Shown here in pieces: positions 1,428-37,126 of a stretch of DNA of 37,126 nt. The DNA is from Escherichia virus Mu_3F6. The DNA lies in sequence record LR595867.1. The stretch is one strand, 5' to 3'. Position 1 is the first letter of the stretch, and the number at the start of each line of letters is the position of its first letter. Both the position numbers and the translations under genes were made by a program. The notes beneath the pieces were generated by a model that was given only the letters and a program-made list of their open reading frames with translations, did not search any database and was not told the DNA's origin.

Positions 1428-3416
1428 ATGAAAGAATGGTATACAGCAAAAGAGTTGCTCGGTTTGGCAGGTTTACCAAAGCAAGCCACTAACATTACAC
1501 GTAAGGCACAAAGAGAAGGCTGGGAGTTCAGGCAGGTTGCAGGGACTAAAGGTGTATCATTTGAATTCAATATCAAATCATTCCCTGTCGCATTACGTGC
1601 TGAAATTCTGTTGCAACAAGGGAGAATTGAAACAAGTCAGGGGTATTTTGAAATCGCCCGCCCCACGCTGGAAGCCCATGATTATGATCGTGAGGCACTG
1701 TGGAGCAAATGGGATAACGCCAGCGATTCCCAGCGCAGACTTGCTGAAAAATGGTTGCCTGCGGTTCAGGCTGCAGACGAAATGCTGAACCAGGGGATTT
1801 CAACGAAAACGGCTTTTGCGACCGTTGCAGGGCATTACCAGGTCAGCGCATCCACTTTGCGGGACAAGTATTACCAGGTACAGAAGTTTGCGAAGCCTGA
1901 CTGGGCGGCTGCACTTGTTGATGGACGTGGAGCATCCCGTCGCAATGTTCACAAAAGTGAATTTGACGAGGATGCCTGGCAGTTTCTGATTGCAGATTAT
2001 CTGCGACCGGAAAAACCCGCCTTCCGCAAATGTTATGAGCGTCTGGAACTGGCAGCCCGCGAGCATGGCTGGAGTATTCCCTCCCGTGCCACGGCCTTTC
2101 GCCGGATTCAGCAACTGGACGAGGCAATGGTTGTTGCCTGTCGTGAAGGTGAACATGCACTGATGCATCTGATACCGGCACAGCAGCGAACTGTGGAACA
2201 CCTGGACGCCATGCAGTGGATCAACGGCGACGGTTATCTGCATAACGTCTTTGTACGCTGGTTTAACGGTGATGTGATCCGTCCGAAAACATGGTTCTGG
2301 CAGGATGTGAAAACCCGAAAAATTCTGGGCTGGCGCTGCGATGTGAGCGAGAACATTGATTCAATTCGCCTCTCGTTCATGGATGTTGTGACTCGCTACG
2401 GTATCCCGGAGGATTTTCACATCACCATTGATAACACCCGTGGTGCTGCGAATAAATGGCTGACGGGAGGCGCGCCCAATCGCTACCGCTTTAAGGTAAA
2501 AGAGGACGATCCAAAAGGACTGTTTTTACTGATGGGGGCGAAAATGCACTGGACAAGCGTTGTTGCCGGTAAAGGCTGGGGCCAGGCAAAACCTGTTGAA
2601 CGTGCTTTCGGTGTTGGTGGGCTTGAGGAATACGTTGATAAGCATCCGGCACTGGCTGGCGCATATACGGGGCCTAATCCGCAGGCAAAACCTGATAACT
2701 ATGGCGACCGCGCTGTTGATGCAGAGCTGTTTCTGAAAACCCTTGCCGAAGGTGTGGCGATGTTCAATGCCAGAACAGGCCGTGAAACAGAAATGTGCGG
2801 AGGCAAACTTTCGTTTGATGACGTTTTTGAGCGTGAATACGCCAGAACGATTGTGCGTAAGCCTACCGAAGAGCAAAAACGGATGCTGTTACTGCCTGCC
2901 GAGGCAGTGAACGTTTCACGTAAAGGCGAGTTCGCGCTTAAAGTTGGTGGCTCCCTTAAAGGTGCGAAAAACGTTTATTACAACATGGCGTTAATGAATG
3001 CCGGAGTAAAAAAAGTTGTGGTCAGATTTGATCCACAGCAGTTACACAGCACGGTTTATTGCTACACCCTTGACGGTCGGTTTATCTGTGAAGCGGAATG
3101 TCTGGCACCTGTTGCGTTTAATGATGCTGCGGCAGGCCGTGAATATCGCCGCCGCCAGAAACAACTGAAATCTGCGACGAAAGCAGCAATTAAGGCACAG
3201 AAACAAATGGATGCACTGGAAGTGGCAGAGCTGCTGCCGCAGATAGCCGAACCTGAAGCACCAGAATCACGAATTGTCGGCATTTTCCGGCCTTCCGGTA
3301 ATACGGAACGAGTGAAGAATCAGGAGCGTGATGATGAATACGAAACTGAGCGTGATGAATATCTGAATCATTCGCTGGATATTCTGGAACAGAACAGACG
3401 TAAAAAAGCCATTTAA
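1428..3416 (+). CDS. A: transposase A (MuA, DDE transposase, 662 aa)
   Basis: Near-identical to recalled MuA over most of its length, ending ...[13 protein letters not shown]; N-terminal ~60 aa diverge (D108-like). Confidence 0.97.
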
Positions 3417-3454
3417 TTAACGTTTAAACAAAATTTAATTACGAGGTTATTCAG

Positions 3455-4393
3455 ATGAATATTTCCGATATTCGCGCAGGACTGCGCACGCTTGTAGAAA
3501 ATGAAGAAACCACCTTTAAACAAATTGCTCTTGAGAGCGGACTTTCTACCGGAACTATCAGTAGTTTTATCAATGATAAGTACAACGGGGATAACGAGCG
3601 TGTTTCACAAATGCTGCAACGCTGGCTGGAAAAATATCATGCAGTTGCAGAACTACCTGAACCGCCCCGCTTTGTGGAAACGCAGACGGTAAAACAAATC
3701 TGGACAAGTATGCGTTTTGCCAGCCTGACTGAAAGTATTGCTGTTGTATGTGGCAATCCTGGTGTGGGCAAAACCGAAGCGGCCCGTGAATATCGCCGCA
3801 CCAATAACAATGTCTGGATGATCACCATTACGCCATCCTGTGCCAGCGTTCTGGAATGTCTTACTGAACTGGCGTTTGAGCTGGGAATGAATGACGCACC
3901 ACGCCGTAAAGGGCCGCTCTCCCGCGCCCTGCGACGTCGCCTTGAAGGTACACAGGGGCTGGTTATCATCGACGAAGCTGATCATCTTGGTGCCGAAGTT
4001 CTGGAAGAACTCCGCCTGTTACAGGAATCAACCCGTATTGGCCTTGTGCTGATGGGAAATCACCGGGTTTATTCAAATATGACGGGGGGTAACAGAACGG
4101 TTGAATTTGCCCGTCTGTTTTCCCGTATTGCAAAGCGCACTGCAATTAATAAAACCAAAAAAGCCGATGTAAAAGCTATTGCGGATGCCTGGCAGATTAA
4201 CGGCGAAAAAGAACTGGAGTTATTACAGCAGATTGCGCAGAAACCAGGTGCGCTTCGCATTCTGAATCATTCACTTCGCCTTGCCGCCATGACGGCTCAC
4301 GGTAAAGGTGAGCGTGTTAACGAAGATTATCTGCGTCAGGCTTTCCGTGAATTAGACCTGGACGTTGATATTTCAACGCTGCTGCGTAATTAA
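3455..4393 (+). CDS. B: transposition ATPase / target DNA activator B (MuB, 312 aa)
   Basis: Walker A GNPGVGKT and Walker B VIIDEADH; size and position as MuB. Confidence 0.95.
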   Translation: MNISDIRAGLRTLVENEETTFKQIALESGLSTGTISSFINDKYNGDNERVSQMLQRWLEKYHAVAELPEPPRFVETQTVKQIWTSMRFASLTESIAVVCGNPGVGKTEAAREYRRTNNNVWMITITPSCASVLECLTELAFELGMNDAPRRKGPLSRALRRRLEGTQGLVIIDEADHLGAEVLEELRLLQESTRIGLVLMGNHRVYSNMTGGNRTVEFARLFSRIAKRTAINKTKKADVKAIADAWQINGEKELELLQQIAQKPGALRILNHSLRLAAMTAHGKGERVNEDYLRQAFRELDLDVDISTLLRN

Positions 4394-5590: not shown

Positions 5591-5890
5591 ATGGTGGCTG
5601 ACATGAAGTGTAATCGTAAGCGCTGGTCACGCGAAGACCGGGAATTTATCGAAGCCAACGTCGGGAAAATGACCGTTGAAGAAATGGCGGAAAAACTGAA
5701 AGTCGCCACAACCGCCCTCCGGGCACATGCCAGAAGGCACGGAATATCATTGTGTGTATACCGAATCAGTGAGCACGACAAATATTTGTGTCGTGAACTT
5801 TATAAAGAAGGGCTGGATATTCATGTCATTGCCCGAAAGATGGAATTAAGCAATCGGGCTGTATCCAGCATTGTATACAGCGGATATTAA
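5591..5890 (+). CDS. early-region hypothetical protein (99 aa; start may be ATG at 5603)
   Basis: ORF abuts the stop of the previous gene; basic, helical. Confidence 0.5.
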   Translation: MVADMKCNRKRWSREDREFIEANVGKMTVEEMAEKLKVATTALRAHARRHGISLCVYRISEHDKYLCRELYKEGLDIHVIARKMELSNRAVSSIVYSGY

Positions 5891-5909
5891 TTAACAGGAG
5901 CTTTAATTT

Positions 5910-6434
5910 ATGGCTAAACCAGCAAAACGTATCAAAAGTGCCGCAGCGGCTTATGTGCCACAAAACCGCGATGCGGTGATTACCGATATTAAACGCATCG
6001 GGGATTTACAGCGCGAAGCATCACGTCTGGAAACGGAAATGAATGATGCCATCGCGGAAATTACGGAGAAATTTGCAGCCCGGATTGCACCGATTAAAAC
6101 CGATATTGAAACCCTTTCAAAAGGTGTTCAGGGATGGTGTGAAGCGAACCGCGACGAACTGACAAACGGCGGCAAAGTGAAGACGGCGAATCTTGTCACC
6201 GGTGATGTATCGTGGCGGGTCCGTCCACCCTCAGTAAGTATTCGTGGTATGGATGCAGTGATGGAAACGCTGGAGCGTCTTGGCCTGCAACGCTTTATTC
6301 GCACGAAGCAGGAAATCAACAAGGAAGCGATTTTACTGGAACCGAAAGCGGTCGCAAGTGTTGCCGGAATTACAGTTAAATCGGGAATTGAAGATTTTTC
6401 CATTATTCCGTTTGAACAGGAAGCCGGTATTTAA
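5910..6434 (+). CDS. gam: Gam, host-nuclease inhibitor / DNA-end binding protein (174 aa)
   Basis: Matches recalled Mu Gam in size and sequence; RBS AGGAG. Confidence 0.9.
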   Translation: MAKPAKRIKSAAAAYVPQNRDAVITDIKRIGDLQREASRLETEMNDAIAEITEKFAARIAPIKTDIETLSKGVQGWCEANRDELTNGGKVKTANLVTGDVSWRVRPPSVSIRGMDAVMETLERLGLQRFIRTKQEINKEAILLEPKAVASVAGITVKSGIEDFSIIPFEQEAGI

Positions 6435-6532
6435 TACCACCATTAATATTTAATTAATTCACATTCTTTTAATTATGGCGCGATGCGTCAGGGGATTGCT
6501 CGCGCCTGAAACAGATTACTGAGGAATAAAAC

Positions 6533-31666: not shown

Positions 31667-33132
31667 TGTTTTATATTGATAACGACAGCGGCGTAACCGT
31701 CATGCCGCCCGTATCCGCCCAGCGTAGTGCTATCGTTCGCTGGTTTTCAGAAGGTGACGGGAATAATGTTATCACATGGCCCGGCATGGACTGGTTTAAT
31801 ATTGTGCAGGCGGAGTTATTAAACACGCTGGAAGAAGCCGGTATTCAACCGGATAAAACAAAATTAAACCAGCTTGCACTGTCCATTAAAGCCATTATGA
31901 GCAATAACGCGCTGCTGATAAAAAATAACCTCAGCGAAATTAAAACTGCCGGGGCATCAGCACAGCGTACAGCACGTGAAAATCTGGATATCTGGGATGC
32001 CAGCCTGAACAAAAAAGGACTCGTTCAGCTAACCAGTGCCACTGACAGCCCCAGTGAAACGCTGGCAGCCACCGCAAAAGCGGTGAAAATTGCGATGGAT
32101 AATGCCAATGCCCGTCTGGCAAAAGACCGGAACGGAGCAGATATTCCCAATAAGCCGCTGTTTATCCAAAACCTCGGTTTACAGGAAACGGTAAATCAGG
32201 CTTCTGGCTCATTACAGAAAAACCAGAACGGCGCAGATATTCCGGGAAAAGATACCTTCACCAAAAATATTGGTGCCTGCCGCGCATATAGCTCATGGCT
32301 GAATATTGGTGGCGATAGTCAGGTCTGGACAACCGCGCAATTTATTTCGTGGCTGGAGAGTCAGGGAGCATTTAACCATCCTTACTGGATGTGCAAAGGC
32401 TCATGGGCTTATGCAAATAATAAGATCATTACAGATACAGGTTGCGGAAATATTTGTCTTGCAGGTGCTGTGGTGGAAGTTATTGGCACTCGCGGCGCAA
32501 TGACCATACGCGTTACTACGCCGAGCACGTCCAGCGGTGGCGGAATTACTAACGCTCAATTCACCTATATTAATCATGGTGATGCTTATGCTCCTGGCTG
32601 GCGACGAGACTACAACACGAAAAACCAGCAGCCTGCATTTGCTTTAGGGCAAACAGGAAGCACTGTCGGAAATGATAAAGCTGTTGGCTGGAACTGGAAC
32701 AGCGGGGTTTATTGCGCCAGCATCACCGGCGCATCAACATTAATTCTTCATTTCAATATGAATACGGGTAGTTGTCCAGCAGTACAGTTCCGCGTGAATT
32801 ATAAGAACGGCGGTATCTTTTATCGTTCAGCCCGTGATGGTTATGGTTTTGAAGCCGACTGGTCCGAATTTTACACCACCACCAGAAAACCTTCAGCAGG
32901 AGATGTTGGTGCATATACTAAAGCGGAATGTAATTCACGATTTATTACAGGTGTCCGTTTAGGAGGACTGTCATCTGTTCAAACATGGAATGGGCCTGGT
33001 TGGTCTGATAAGTCAGGTTATGTCGTTACAGGTTCAGTTAACGGAAACCGTGACGAATTAATTGATACAACTCAGGCAAGGCCAATTCAGTATTGCATTA
33101 ATGGGACGTGGTATAACGCGGGGAGTATTTAA
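31666..33132 (+). CDS. S: tail fibre protein S, constant part fused to the variable part of the current G-segment orientation (488 aa)
   Basis: ORF spans the left gix site at 32162-32188 (encoding ...LFIQNLGLQET...); constant part upstream, variable part inside the invertible segment. Confidence 0.85.
   Translation: MFYIDNDSGVTVMPPVSAQRSAIVRWFSEGDGNNVITWPGMDWFNIVQAELLNTLEEAGIQPDKTKLNQLALSIKAIMSNNALLIKNNLSEIKTAGASAQRTARENLDIWDASLNKKGLVQLTSATDSPSETLAATAKAVKIAMDNANARLAKDRNGADIPNKPLFIQNLGLQETVNQASGSLQKNQNGADIPGKDTFTKNIGACRAYSSWLNIGGDSQVWTTAQFISWLESQGAFNHPYWMCKGSWAYANNKIITDTGCGNICLAGAVVEVIGTRGAMTIRVTTPSTSSGGGITNAQFTYINHGDAYAPGWRRDYNTKNQQPAFALGQTGSTVGNDKAVGWNWNSGVYCASITGASTLILHFNMNTGSCPAVQFRVNYKNGGIFYRSARDGYGFEADWSEFYTTTRKPSAGDVGAYTKAECNSRFITGVRLGGLSSVQTWNGPGWSDKSGYVVTGSVNGNRDELIDTTQARPIQYCINGTWYNAGSI
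32162..32188. repeat. gix left recombination site (Gin invertase site)
   Basis: TTATCCAAAACCTCGGTTTACAGGAAA; inverted copy at 34939-34965. Confidence 0.85.
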
Positions 33133-33134
33133 CG

Positions 33135-33668
33135 ATGATGCACTTAAAAAACATTACTGCTGGCAATCCTAAAACAAAAGAGCAATATCAGCTAACAAAG
33201 CAATTTAACATCAAATGGCTTTATACAGAGGATGGAAAAAACTGGTATGAGGAACAAAAGAATTTCCAGTCTGATACGTTGAAAATGGTCTATGACCATA
33301 ACGGCGTTATTATTTGTATTGAAAAGGATGTTTCAGCAATTAATCCAGAAGGCGCAAGCGTCGTTGAATTACCTGATATTACAGCAAATCGCCGGGCTGA
33401 TATTTCGGGTAAATGGATGTTCAAAGATGGTGCGGTGATAAAGCGAACTTATACCGGGGAAGAGCAGAGGCAGCAGGCAGAGAATGAAAAACAAAGCCTG
33501 TTGCAACTTGTCAGGGATAAAACCCAGCTATGGGACTCACAGCTACGGCTGGGCATCATTTCCGATGAGAATAAACAGAAATTAACCGAGTGGATGCTCT
33601 ATGCGCAGAAAGTCGAATCCACAGACACCTCCAGCCTGCCGGTAACATTCCCCGAACAACCAGAATGA
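33135..33668 (+). CDS. U: tail fibre assembly protein U (177 aa)
   Basis: Directly after S. Confidence 0.8.
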   Translation: MMHLKNITAGNPKTKEQYQLTKQFNIKWLYTEDGKNWYEEQKNFQSDTLKMVYDHNGVIICIEKDVSAINPEGASVVELPDITANRRADISGKWMFKDGAVIKRTYTGEEQRQQAENEKQSLLQLVRDKTQLWDSQLRLGIISDENKQKLTEWMLYAQKVESTDTSSLPVTFPEQPE

Positions 33669-35019: not shown

Positions 35020-35637
35020 GTGCTGATTGGCTATGTAAGGGTATCAACAAATGACCAGAATACAGACCTGCAACGAAACGCTCTTGTTTGTGCAGGATGT
35101 GAACAAATATTTGAAGATAAATTAAGCGGAACAAGGACAGACAGACCTGGATTAAAACGCGCGTTAAAGCGCCTTCAAAAAGGTGACACACTGGTTGTCT
35201 GGAAACTGGATCGCCTCGGGCGAAGCATGAAACATCTGATTTCCCTCGTCGGGGAACTACGGGAGCGAGGGATTAATTTTCGCAGTCTTACCGACAGCAT
35301 AGACACATCTTCTCCAATGGGGCGTTTTTTCTTCCACGTTATGGGTGCCCTGGCTGAAATGGAACGAGAACTAATCATCGAGCGAACGATGGCTGGACTT
35401 GCTGCCGCCAGAAATAAAGGCCGTATTGGTGGGCGACCACCTAAACTAACCAAAGCGGAATGGGAGCAGGCCGGGCGTTTATTAGCACAAGGAATCCCCC
35501 GCAAGCAGGTTGCATTGATCTATGATGTGGCTCTGTCAACTCTGTATAAAAAACACCCCGCGAAACGAACGCATATAGAAAACGACGATCGAATCAATCA
35601 AATCGATCGGCAATACAGATCGATTATGCCCCAATAA
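35020..35637 (+). CDS. gin: Gin serine invertase (G-segment DNA invertase, 205 aa as read)
   Basis: Recognised Gin N-terminus MLIGYVRVSTNDQNTDLQRN with catalytic Ser; C-terminal HTH. Confidence 0.95.
   Translation: MLIGYVRVSTNDQNTDLQRNALVCAGCEQIFEDKLSGTRTDRPGLKRALKRLQKGDTLVVWKLDRLGRSMKHLISLVGELRERGINFRSLTDSIDTSSPMGRFFFHVMGALAEMERELIIERTMAGLAAARNKGRIGGRPPKLTKAEWEQAGRLLAQGIPRKQVALIYDVALSTLYKKHPAKRTHIENDDRINQIDRQYRSIMPQ
35587..35621. promoter_or_regulatory. cluster of three GATC (Dam) sites upstream of the com-mom operon
   Basis: GATC at 35587-35590, 35605-35608 and 35618-35621 within the 3' end of gin; matches the known methylation-dependent mom regulatory region. Confidence 0.75.
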
Positions 35638-35695: not shown

Positions 35696-35884
35696 ATGAA
35701 ATCAATTCGCTGTAAAAACTGCAACAAACTGTTATTTAAGGCGGATTCCTTTGATCACATTGAAATCAGGTGTCCGCGTTGCAAACGTCATATCATAATG
35801 CTGAATGCCTGCGAGCATCCCACGGAGAAACATTGTGGGAAAAGAGAAGAAATCACGCATTCTGACGAAACCGTGCGTTATTGA
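35696..35884 (+). CDS. com: Com, zinc-finger translational activator of mom (62 aa)
   Basis: Matches recalled Com ([16 protein letters not shown]...CPRCKRH...); RBS AAGGAGG. Confidence 0.95.
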
Positions 35885-36542
35885 GTATGAAAGCCAGATT
35901 GTTGGCTATGGTTCAAAGGAGCTGCGCGTTGAAACCATATCCTGCTGGCTGGCCCGCACAATTATTCAGACAAAGCACTATTCCCGCCGTTTTGTGAATA
36001 ACTCTTACCTCCACTTGGGAGTATTCAGCGGACGCGATCTGGTTGGCGTTCTCCAGTGGGGATATGCCCTTAACCCCAACTCTGGTCGTCGTGTCGTGCT
36101 TGAAACGGATAACCGGGGCTATATGGAGTTGAACCGCATGTGGCTACACGACGACATGCCCCGCAACTCTGAATCACGGGCCATCAGTTATGCACTGAAA
36201 ACCATAAGGTTACTGTATCCGTCAGTGGAGTGGGTTCAGTCTTTTGCAGACGAACGCTGCGGACGTGCTGGCGTTGTGTATCAGGCGTCAAATTTTGATT
36301 TTATTGGCAGCCATGAAAGCACGTTCTACGAGCTGGATGGTGAGTGGTATCACGAGATAACGATGAACGCAATTAAGCGCGGTGGACAACGAGGCATGTA
36401 TTTACGGGCTAATAAAGAGCGTGCCGTGGTGCACAAATTTAATCAGTATCGCTACATCAGGTTCCTGAACAAGCGAGCAAGAAAGCGGCTAAATACCAAA
36501 CTATTCAGGATTCAGCCATACCCAAAAAGCAGTTCTGATTAG
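35805..36542 (+). CDS. mom: Mom DNA modification protein (start codon uncertain; overlaps com)
   Basis: ORF overlapping the 3' end of com in another frame; recognised Mom; translation known to depend on Com. Confidence 0.85.
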
Positions 36543-36586
36543 TATCATATAAATTTATGTATTTACTCACATACGGAGCATATTAG

Positions 36587-37033
36587 ATGAAAAAATCAAA
36601 ATTGCTAATCAGTACCATCATCAGCCTATTCGTACTAACCGCCTCCTCAGTCAATCACGCTCAAGAAAAAGATTTTGATCCTGAAGTGGCTGCTGATGCA
36701 GTCTTAAGGTCCGCCGGGATAGATCCAGATAAGAGTGTTGCAAATAAAGCCCCTGCCTCTGGTTTTTGGACCTGCCACGGTATTCGTATGCATATGGGCG
36801 TTGATATGGGGTCATGGACAGACCTTGATACAGGTGAACTATACACTCAGATAGAAACAGGCCAAATTGACGAACAAGACAAGGATGAAAAGATTAAAGG
36901 GACTGATTATCTCTATGCTTTGACTAGAAATCCTGCGGTTATAAAGTATTTTATCGTTGATAAATCAGGAAAAAATCTTTATATCCGAGATGATGTGAAT
37001 ATTTTTAAGACGTATAAATGTAAACGAAACTGA
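36587..37033 (+). CDS. hypothetical secreted protein with N-terminal signal peptide (148 aa); candidate cargo gene between mom and the right end
   Basis: MKKSKLLISTIISLFVLTASSVNHAQ signal-peptide-like N-terminus without lipobox Cys; GGAG 9 nt upstream of ATG; visibly AT-rich; no counterpart recalled in canonical Mu. Confidence 0.6.
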   Translation: MKKSKLLISTIISLFVLTASSVNHAQEKDFDPEVAADAVLRSAGIDPDKSVANKAPASGFWTCHGIRMHMGVDMGSWTDLDTGELYTQIETGQIDEQDKDEKIKGTDYLYALTRNPAVIKYFIVDKSGKNLYIRDDVNIFKTYKCKRN

Positions 37034-37126
37034 CATACATAAAACAACTGTCTCAATTGAAGCGCGAAAGTTTTGAGTTTTCGTATTTTATTTGAAACGC
37101 TTTCGCGCTTTTCGTGCGCCGCTTCA
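37034..37126 (+). repeat. prophage right end (attR) with transposase end-binding sites
   Basis: Terminal ...TTGAAACGCTTTCGCGCTTTTCGTGCGCCGCTTCA ending in CA at the window end; CGAAA-containing repeats in inverted orientation relative to the left end. Confidence 0.85.

Follow-up and report, generated by a model that had tools for sequence, protein, structure and literature searches.

Gene 56 at the right end of Escherichia virus Mu_3F6, an accessory gene of the D108 lineage with a predicted exported beta-barrel product

Right end of the phage and identity of gene 56

In this study, we analyzed the right end of Escherichia virus Mu_3F6 on the basis of sequence record LR595867.1, a stretch of 37,126 nt, which is referred to as the window at its full length. 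Between the gene mom and the transposase-binding sites of the right attachment site attR, an open reading frame (ORF) encoding 148 amino acids (aa) with an ATG start codon is located on the plus strand (36587..37033). This ORF corresponds to gene 56 of phage D108: on the amino acid level, its product is 100% identical to the D108 gene 56 protein (YP_003335805; tblastn), a hypothetical protein annotated as “D108-specific protein”, and matches PHROG 15648, a family of unknown function, over its full length (phrog_15648; residues 1–148 of 148; E 7.6e-88). Also, the entire right end of the window is 99.2% identical to that of D108. A first-pass annotation made from the letters alone had already reported the 148-aa frame, pointed to extra DNA of D108 in this region and presumed that the gene might be present in databases as an undescribed hypothetical protein. 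All of this was borne out: the gene is annotated in D108, is functionally uncharacterized and has no function assigned in public records. In the literature searched, also by identifier, no mention of gene 56 was found, and the paper on SfMu and those on Mu-like phages of Yersinia are silent on it.

Gene 56 is also present in the E. coli phage PhiR68_1 (99.3% aa identity) and in the Yersinia phages vB_YpM_3 and vB_YpM_23, and its position between mom and attR is common to these phages and D108. Its occurrence is sporadic. Among 5426 complete E. coli genomes, a mom gene of the Mu/D108 type was found in 97, and only 6 of these 97 carry gene 56.

At the right end, the genes and sites follow each other in the order gin (35020..35637), com, mom, spacer, gene 56 and attR sites. 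According to the ORF list and the annotation of D108 and Mu, com (35696..35884, plus strand) encodes the translational activator of mom and is the first gene of the late com-mom operon. The gene mom (35805..36542, plus strand) ends with the stop codon at 36540–36542, leaving 584 bp to the end of the window, in line with the roughly 580 bp estimated before. The spacer between mom and gene 56 (36543..36586, plus strand) comprises 44 bp and contains the Shine-Dalgarno sequence GGAG (36575..36578, plus strand) 8 nt ahead of the ATG. The stretch with this ribosome binding site (RBS), ACGGAGCATATTAGATG, is unchanged in a related prophage locus (L025), whose gene 56 relative is 89% identical. Downstream of gene 56, three Mu-type transposase-binding sites of attR are located: the innermost, R3-like site (37054..37070, plus strand), which is 20 bp away from the stop codon of the ORF, the R2-like site (37078..37094, minus strand), and the R1-like site (37100..37116, minus strand). 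The right terminus of the phage (...TTCA) is reached at position 37126.

Base composition and selection

The GC content of the ORF is 39.4% compared to 51.8% for the whole window, which corresponds to the 2.1st percentile of all 447-bp windows, and GC at third codon positions is 34.5% compared to 54.3% in mom. The visibly lower GC relative to the neighboring genes, remarked on in the first-pass annotation, could thus be quantified. Homologs of gene 56 are likewise lower in GC than their own flanks. Other stretches of the window with a GC content of 39.4% or less are 51–1498 in the left-end immunity region and 32871–33458 in a part of the invertible G segment, both of which belong to the classic variable regions of Mu-type phages.

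The ratio of non-synonymous to synonymous substitution rates (dN/dS) is 0.15 at a dS of 0.35 when compared to the 89% identical copy in L025. Versus relatives with 45–60% identity it is 0.10–0.22, with synonymous sites being near saturation at this distance. In the family alignment 25 positions are invariant, and the full-length frame is kept at 42–100% identity in about 30 loci. On the nucleotide level, homology to distant members is confined to 36743–37033 and ends at the stop codon (BLASTN). A candidate left edge (TTCTGAT...) seemingly common to D108 and Salmonella cassettes was dropped, since BLASTN homology lies within the coding region only. In the region 36300–37126 no RNA family of Rfam was detected. 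Taken together, the ORF at 36587..37033 constitutes a true accessory gene that moves horizontally.

Extra DNA relative to Mu and structure of the junction

Homology of the window to Mu and SfMu stops at about 36523 and restarts at about 37040, just ahead of the R3-like site. Beyond about 36523, Mu has 122 bp left to its end and the window 603 bp, so that the net surplus is 481 bp. The alignment thereby confirmed extra DNA at the right end, for which about 450 bp had been estimated by the first-pass annotation; the surplus is real, its size had to be raised. For the region from the G segment to the right end, the length of about 1.7 kb given for Mu agrees with the measured 1692 bp (boundary at 35025 of 36717). 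In the window, 2.16 kb had been counted from 34965; the Mu boundary maps to 34953, giving 2173 bp instead of 2161 bp, and this offset of 12 bp is immaterial.

In the comparison of right ends, gene 56 was absent from Mu, SfMu, vB_YpM_5, vB_YpM_6, and Tongde. The latter three, all phages of Yersinia, match the window up to 36556, including the D108-type C-terminus of Mom, and continue beyond this position into a different right end without gene 56. Because they share the 3′ end of mom and the first 14 nt of the spacer past its stop codon (36543–36556), the DNA specific to the D108 lineage can be placed at about 36557..37039 on the plus strand (about 483 bp), consisting of the RBS, the ORF, and 6 bp. 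An insertion boundary at 36534, initially set on the basis of a 10-nt match to Mu (AAAAAGCAGT), was replaced by the position at about 36557 after this comparison. The C-terminus of Mom reads ...QPYPK* in Mu, ...QPYPKSTPD* in vB_YpM_5, and ...QPYPKSSSD* in the window. The idea that the C-terminal extension was made by the insertion was ruled out, as the extension is present in vB_YpM_5 and Tongde. The ORF had been described as inserted between mom and the right end; it is indeed extra relative to Mu and SfMu, but the junction is mosaic in structure and not that of a simple insertion. The first-pass annotation had also considered that the same ORF might occur in canonical Mu or that its frame might be lost among related prophages. 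Neither was observed.

The right ends of vB_YpM_5 (L016, 3100–3200) and Tongde (L017, 3090–3200) carry repeated GTATCAAA motifs and not the Mu-type sites R1–R3. Both are Muvirus phages, and their gin-com-mom region is about 96% identical to that of D108. Their sequences suggest that a different transposase end specificity may be present behind an otherwise Mu-like late region.

Distribution of the family and genomic slots

To compare gene 56 homologs (designated X) in their genomic contexts, about 30 loci (L-numbers) were collected from GTDB genomes, IMG/VR, and assemblies of read archives and metagenomes. Screening 5.8 billion protein clusters revealed 16 relatives, and a profile search of 1.84 billion cluster representatives yielded 12 matches belonging to the same small family. 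One sequence of 2316 aa, which was matched in 38 short repeated segments, was rejected as apparent low-complexity noise. The named sources of relatives are E. coli, Citrobacter, Salmonella, and Hafnia, to which the scan of genomes contributed Kluyvera and Apirhabdus. Every member for which a source name or genomic context is available belongs to Enterobacterales or to Mu-like prophages or phages, and in every one of the about 30 loci X is located inside a Mu-like prophage.

The commonest arrangement is gemA, X, a gene for a C-type activator, and a lysozyme gene, all on one strand. In six loci (L010–L012, L030, L032, and L033) X occupies the same slot in inverted orientation. The slot between gemA and the C-type late activator gene is thus the normal position of the family, in either orientation. 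The arrangement mom-X-attR was found only in the D108 lineage (the window, D108, PhiR68_1, vB_YpM_3, vB_YpM_23, L023, and L024) and in the more divergent L025; in the D108 lineage, a copy consisting of ORF and RBS separates mom from the innermost attR site. In D108 there is no room between gemA and the activator gene, as gemA overlaps mor. For this reason, the gene appears to have been captured secondarily at its position in D108, as a coding region only.

In the gemA slot, X is accompanied by near-identical palindromic terminator hairpins (L004, 5900–6530; L006, L010, and L013, around 5850–6480). A strong hairpin AATCCCGC...GCGGGATTTT follows X in all four arrangements examined (L004, L006, L010, and L013), and in two of them a hairpin is also located ahead of X, being strong in L004 and weaker in L010. 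For most of these hairpins, folding energies of −14 to −16 kcal/mol and z scores of −3 to −5 were obtained. A simple terminator scan missed hairpins that were visible in the homolog loci, which were then folded directly. Since the copies of the palindrome are direct and inverted repeats of each other, recombination could flip or excise X. In the window, scanning and folding detected no hairpin or terminator between mom and gene 56 or after gene 56 (z +0.9 after the ORF).

L025 is a decayed, D108-like prophage. In its region 3052–3911, a deletion has fused the remaining portion of gin with the 3′ portion of mom. Thereby, com and the 5′ end of mom were lost, and X is full length and intact. The spacer between mom and X of L025 holds a 45-bp insertion. 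Kluyvera prophages and one IMG/VR contig (L021, L022, and L031; about 3000–4000) contain about 1 kb of extra DNA between gemA and X, which may represent further cargo in the gemA slot. In D108, genes 19 and 20 (L015, 9508–9999) occupy the middle-operon slot that matches the position of X in other phages. In D108 and Mu they encode the membrane proteins gp19 (multi-pass) and gp20, which are non-essential and of unknown role (PMC9239132). It appears that Mu-like phages generally use this region of the genome for accessory genes directed at the envelope.

Export signal, cysteines, and predicted structure of the protein

The N-terminus of the gene 56 product has the features of a Sec signal peptide (36587..36661, plus strand), which comprises residues 1–25 at most. 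In a heuristic scan, a net charge of +3 was found before a hydrophobic core (LISTIISLFV; mean Kyte-Doolittle value 2.6), followed by small residues at −3 and −1. The predicted cleavage site is ambiguous, either after residues 19–21 or after A25. By the same heuristic, the n-, h-, and c-regions are present in all 16 family members checked despite differing residues, and the features of the signal peptide postulated by the first-pass annotation are accordingly conserved among divergent members. A lipobox ([LVI][ASTVI][GAS]C) does not occur in the signal peptide, and the first cysteine is residue 63; the protein therefore lacks the hallmark of a lipoprotein processed by signal peptidase II.

AlphaFold2, supplied with a family alignment of 15 sequences, predicted residues 1–28 to be disordered (predicted local distance difference test score, pLDDT, below 50), followed by a helix at residues 32–42 and eight strands between residues 59 and 144. 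Block-mean pLDDT values reach 90–96 over most of residues 61–148. The helix is part of a variable linker of the mature protein (residues 26–55; 36662..36751, plus strand), which is short or nearly absent in some homologs. The conserved part is an eight-stranded beta-barrel domain of 93 residues (residues 56–148; 36752..37030, plus strand; block-mean pLDDT 78–96), and nucleotide homology to the distant family members is limited to this part of the gene. Its strands have lengths of 3–9 residues, and the protein ends with CKRN. For the mature protein, a mass of about 13.9 kDa and an isoelectric point (pI) of 5.1 were computed. The two cysteines noted by the first-pass annotation are both invariant in the family: Cys63 (codon 36773..36775, plus strand) in strand 1 and Cys145 (codon 37019..37021, plus strand) after strand 8 within the invariant C-terminal CKR motif. 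They are presumed to be disulfide partners. Further invariant residues are His69, Asp125, Asp135, Asp136, and several lysines. The C-terminal half is charged as described before, with 22 of 62 residues versus 16 of 61 in the preceding part of the mature protein.

Searches for known domains gave no assignment. At E ≤ 10, the ORF product matched no family of Pfam-A, including PliC/MliC (PF09864), and nothing meaningful in NCBIfam. With the same threshold, the defense models of PADLOC-DB yielded only Csm2 (E 0.036; 12.4 bits), which is noise, and PHROGs only the unknown-function entry of the family itself. In a profile search of the sequences in PDB there was no meaningful match (one at E 0.26), and Foldseek returned nothing at E ≤ 0.001 from PDB and BFVD. 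By these searches, the gene 56 product belongs to no curated family, PliC/MliC included. A non-significant similarity, confined to the general fold, was noted to the lipocalin-fold domain of Tp0751 (pallilysin) of Treponema pallidum (PDB 5jk2; 11% identity, root mean square deviation 4.2 Å, Foldseek E 0.1), a protein from an unrelated organism and biological setting.

Further features of the window

Positions 1–149 of the window are a non-phage flank, and the left end of Mu and D108, TGTATTGATTCACTTGAAGTACG, begins at position 150. As a result, the L1 site is found at 160–176 in the window and at 11–27 in the D108 record. The window carries this short left flank but stops exactly at the right terminus. 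Gin comprises 205 aa in the window compared to 193 aa in Mu and 197 aa in D108. In the region 35598–35637, the gin stop codons of Mu and D108 are read as sense codons (CAA for TAA), and the extended C-terminus of Gin ends with ...QIDRQYRSIMPQ.

Proposed function and alternative explanations

That gene 56 is a real accessory gene with an exported product is, in our view, highly probable. The precursor would be exported by the Sec pathway and cleaved after one of residues 19–25. The mature protein of about 13–14 kDa would then be oxidized, with a disulfide between C63 and C145 stapling the first strand to the C-terminus, and the barrel would remain soluble in the periplasm. The sporadic distribution indicates that gene 56 is dispensable for phage growth. 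Exported barrels as small as this one typically act by binding or inhibition, and those phage-encoded periplasmic proteins whose role is known, such as Spackle of T4 and Sim of P1, serve mostly to exclude other phages or to weaken enzymes that degrade the wall. Based on these two generalizations, we propose that the barrel may bind a partner in the cell envelope with a protective outcome, most likely in the form of superinfection exclusion or by neutralizing an incoming enzyme that is toxic or degrades the cell wall. Models for such an action would be Spackle, Sim, PliC/MliC, and type VI immunity proteins. The role as a periplasmic binder for protection or exclusion is tentative and less likely than not, and the reading as a whole, an exported accessory gene whose product is a protective periplasmic binder, is evenly balanced as a blend of these two separate estimates. 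The suggestion of the first-pass annotation that a secreted protein encoded at this site could serve lysogenic conversion or exclusion is plausible as well.

Several points weigh against this explanation. Signal-peptide cleavage, disulfide formation, and localization are predictions. In the spacer 36543–36586 no match to the sigma-70 promoter consensus was found by a consensus scan, nor upstream of X in the homolog loci L006, L010, and L013, and the one weak match in L004 (9 of 12 positions) is at chance frequency. A lysogen-protecting role needs expression in the repressed prophage, which is unsupported, as no promoter was found. Moreover, gene 56 of D108 starts 44 bp downstream of a late gene and is not separated from it by a terminator, which points to lytic-phase expression. 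In D108, gene 56 would most likely be transcribed through read-through from the late com-mom operon, with a possible contribution of a weak promoter of its own. The inverted copies in other prophages, to judge from their arrangement, must have some promoter.

The main alternative would be a late lytic helper that is made along with Mom and acts on the phage’s own envelope steps, for example by restraining or timing the signal-arrest-release (SAR) endolysin or the spanins, or by keeping progeny from re-adsorbing to debris. Besides the location behind mom on the same strand, the frequent position of X directly upstream of the genes for the C-type activator and lysozyme in most other phages would fit such a role, and PliC-type lysozyme inhibitors are found among the weak fold neighbors. 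Furthermore, gp22 of Mu is a SAR endolysin exported by Sec, the catalytic domain of which is kept waiting in the periplasm, and a holin is lacking in Mu (PMC9239132). However, the gene is missing from close relatives, namely Mu, SfMu, and about 91 of the 97 E. coli prophages with mom. In the six loci with the inverted gene, X runs opposite to all phage operons, the hairpins on both sides in L004 and L010 would uncouple X from phage transcription, and X remained intact in L025 with its deleted com-mom region. We therefore regard a late helper as unlikely. Slightly less probable still is a small-ligand-binding, calycin-like barrel, i.e. a periplasmic carrier or scavenger of a lipid, cofactor, metal, or envelope precursor, which would change host physiology and thus represent a lysogenic conversion unrelated to phage exclusion. 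The invariant His69, the three invariant aspartates, and the conserved lysines would be suitable for ligand binding. On the other hand, the scores of the fold matches are low and non-specific, with no significant Foldseek result, and the family is limited to transposable prophages, whereas a general carrier might be widespread in bacterial genomes.

With its signal peptide and eight predicted beta-strands, the gene 56 product could also be taken for an outer-membrane beta-barrel of the Lom/Ail/OmpX kind on the cell surface, and Lom of lambda is an example of an outer-membrane protein encoded by a prophage accessory gene. We consider this very improbable: an outer-membrane barrel would require longer strands than those of the model and a less polar protein. 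The domain has only 93 residues, is rich in charges with an acidic pI, and ends with CKRN and not with an aromatic residue. In addition, there is no Pfam match of the OmpX/Ail type, and the invariant cysteines suit a soluble, oxidized periplasmic protein. Least probable of all is a chance ORF or a decaying remnant without function, which the lack of a known domain and of a detectable promoter might suggest. The conservation data effectively refute this explanation, with a dN/dS of 0.1–0.2 across several independent lineages, an intact frame throughout the loci compared, and a conserved RBS. The confident structure model also speaks against it, and Rfam offers no RNA as an alternative.

A more specific form of the preferred explanation, a protective periplasmic binder, would make gene 56 the founding member of an unrecognized family of periplasmic beta-barrel exclusion or immunity proteins that is specific to Mu-like phages of enteric bacteria and blocks an incoming phage or an envelope-attacking enzyme by direct binding. 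The gene would then be a portable cassette, which could be flipped or excised by recombination wherever it is flanked by two near-identical palindromic terminators, and D108 would have captured the ORF alone, secondarily, next to attR. We put this forward as speculation that is somewhat improbable in its entirety.

Comparison with known systems and relevance

Gene 56 resembles phage morons in several respects, when judged by the definition of Juhala and Hendrix as given in PMC3594210. It represents additional DNA (net 481 bp compared to Mu and SfMu) that splits features lying next to each other in closely related phages, its GC content deviates from the surroundings, its distribution is sporadic, and its product is predicted to be targeted to the envelope. 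In contrast to a typical moron, the D108 copy has no terminator, whereas the homologs in the gemA slot do have strong hairpins. The consensus scan detected no promoter for the D108 copy. A moron for superinfection exclusion is gp15 of HK97 (Juhala et al. 2000; Cumby et al. 2012, summarized in PMC3594210). HK97 gp15 is an inner-membrane protein, while the gene 56 product is predicted to be a soluble exported barrel.

The closest systems in the proposed mode of action include T4 Spackle and P1 Sim, both of which have cleavable signal peptides, with Spackle inhibiting the tail lysozyme gp5. The proposed likeness consists in a small phage protein with a signal peptide that acts in the periplasm against an incoming phage. 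Spackle is helical; the gene 56 product, by contrast, is predicted to be an all-beta barrel. PliC/MliC and other small eight-stranded barrel inhibitors or immunity proteins (staphostatin, LupI, and BtaiB) are also among the closest systems.

The immediate value of the finding is modest, as it mainly confirms an already annotated hypothetical gene. The family is a small example of the movement of an accessory gene within one phage lineage, involving two slots, both orientations, and adjacent terminator hairpins, and this two-slot, two-orientation behavior is the most interesting by-product of the analysis. D108 and Mu are textbook model phages, and gene 56 is among the few differences in gene content between them. 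Should gene 56 turn out to serve exclusion or protection of the envelope, a new fold family would join the prophage-encoded functions protecting the host, and a simple, testable difference in phenotype would be expected between Mu and D108 lysogens. Assigning a function to gene 56 would be a small but real addition to the biology of Mu and D108.
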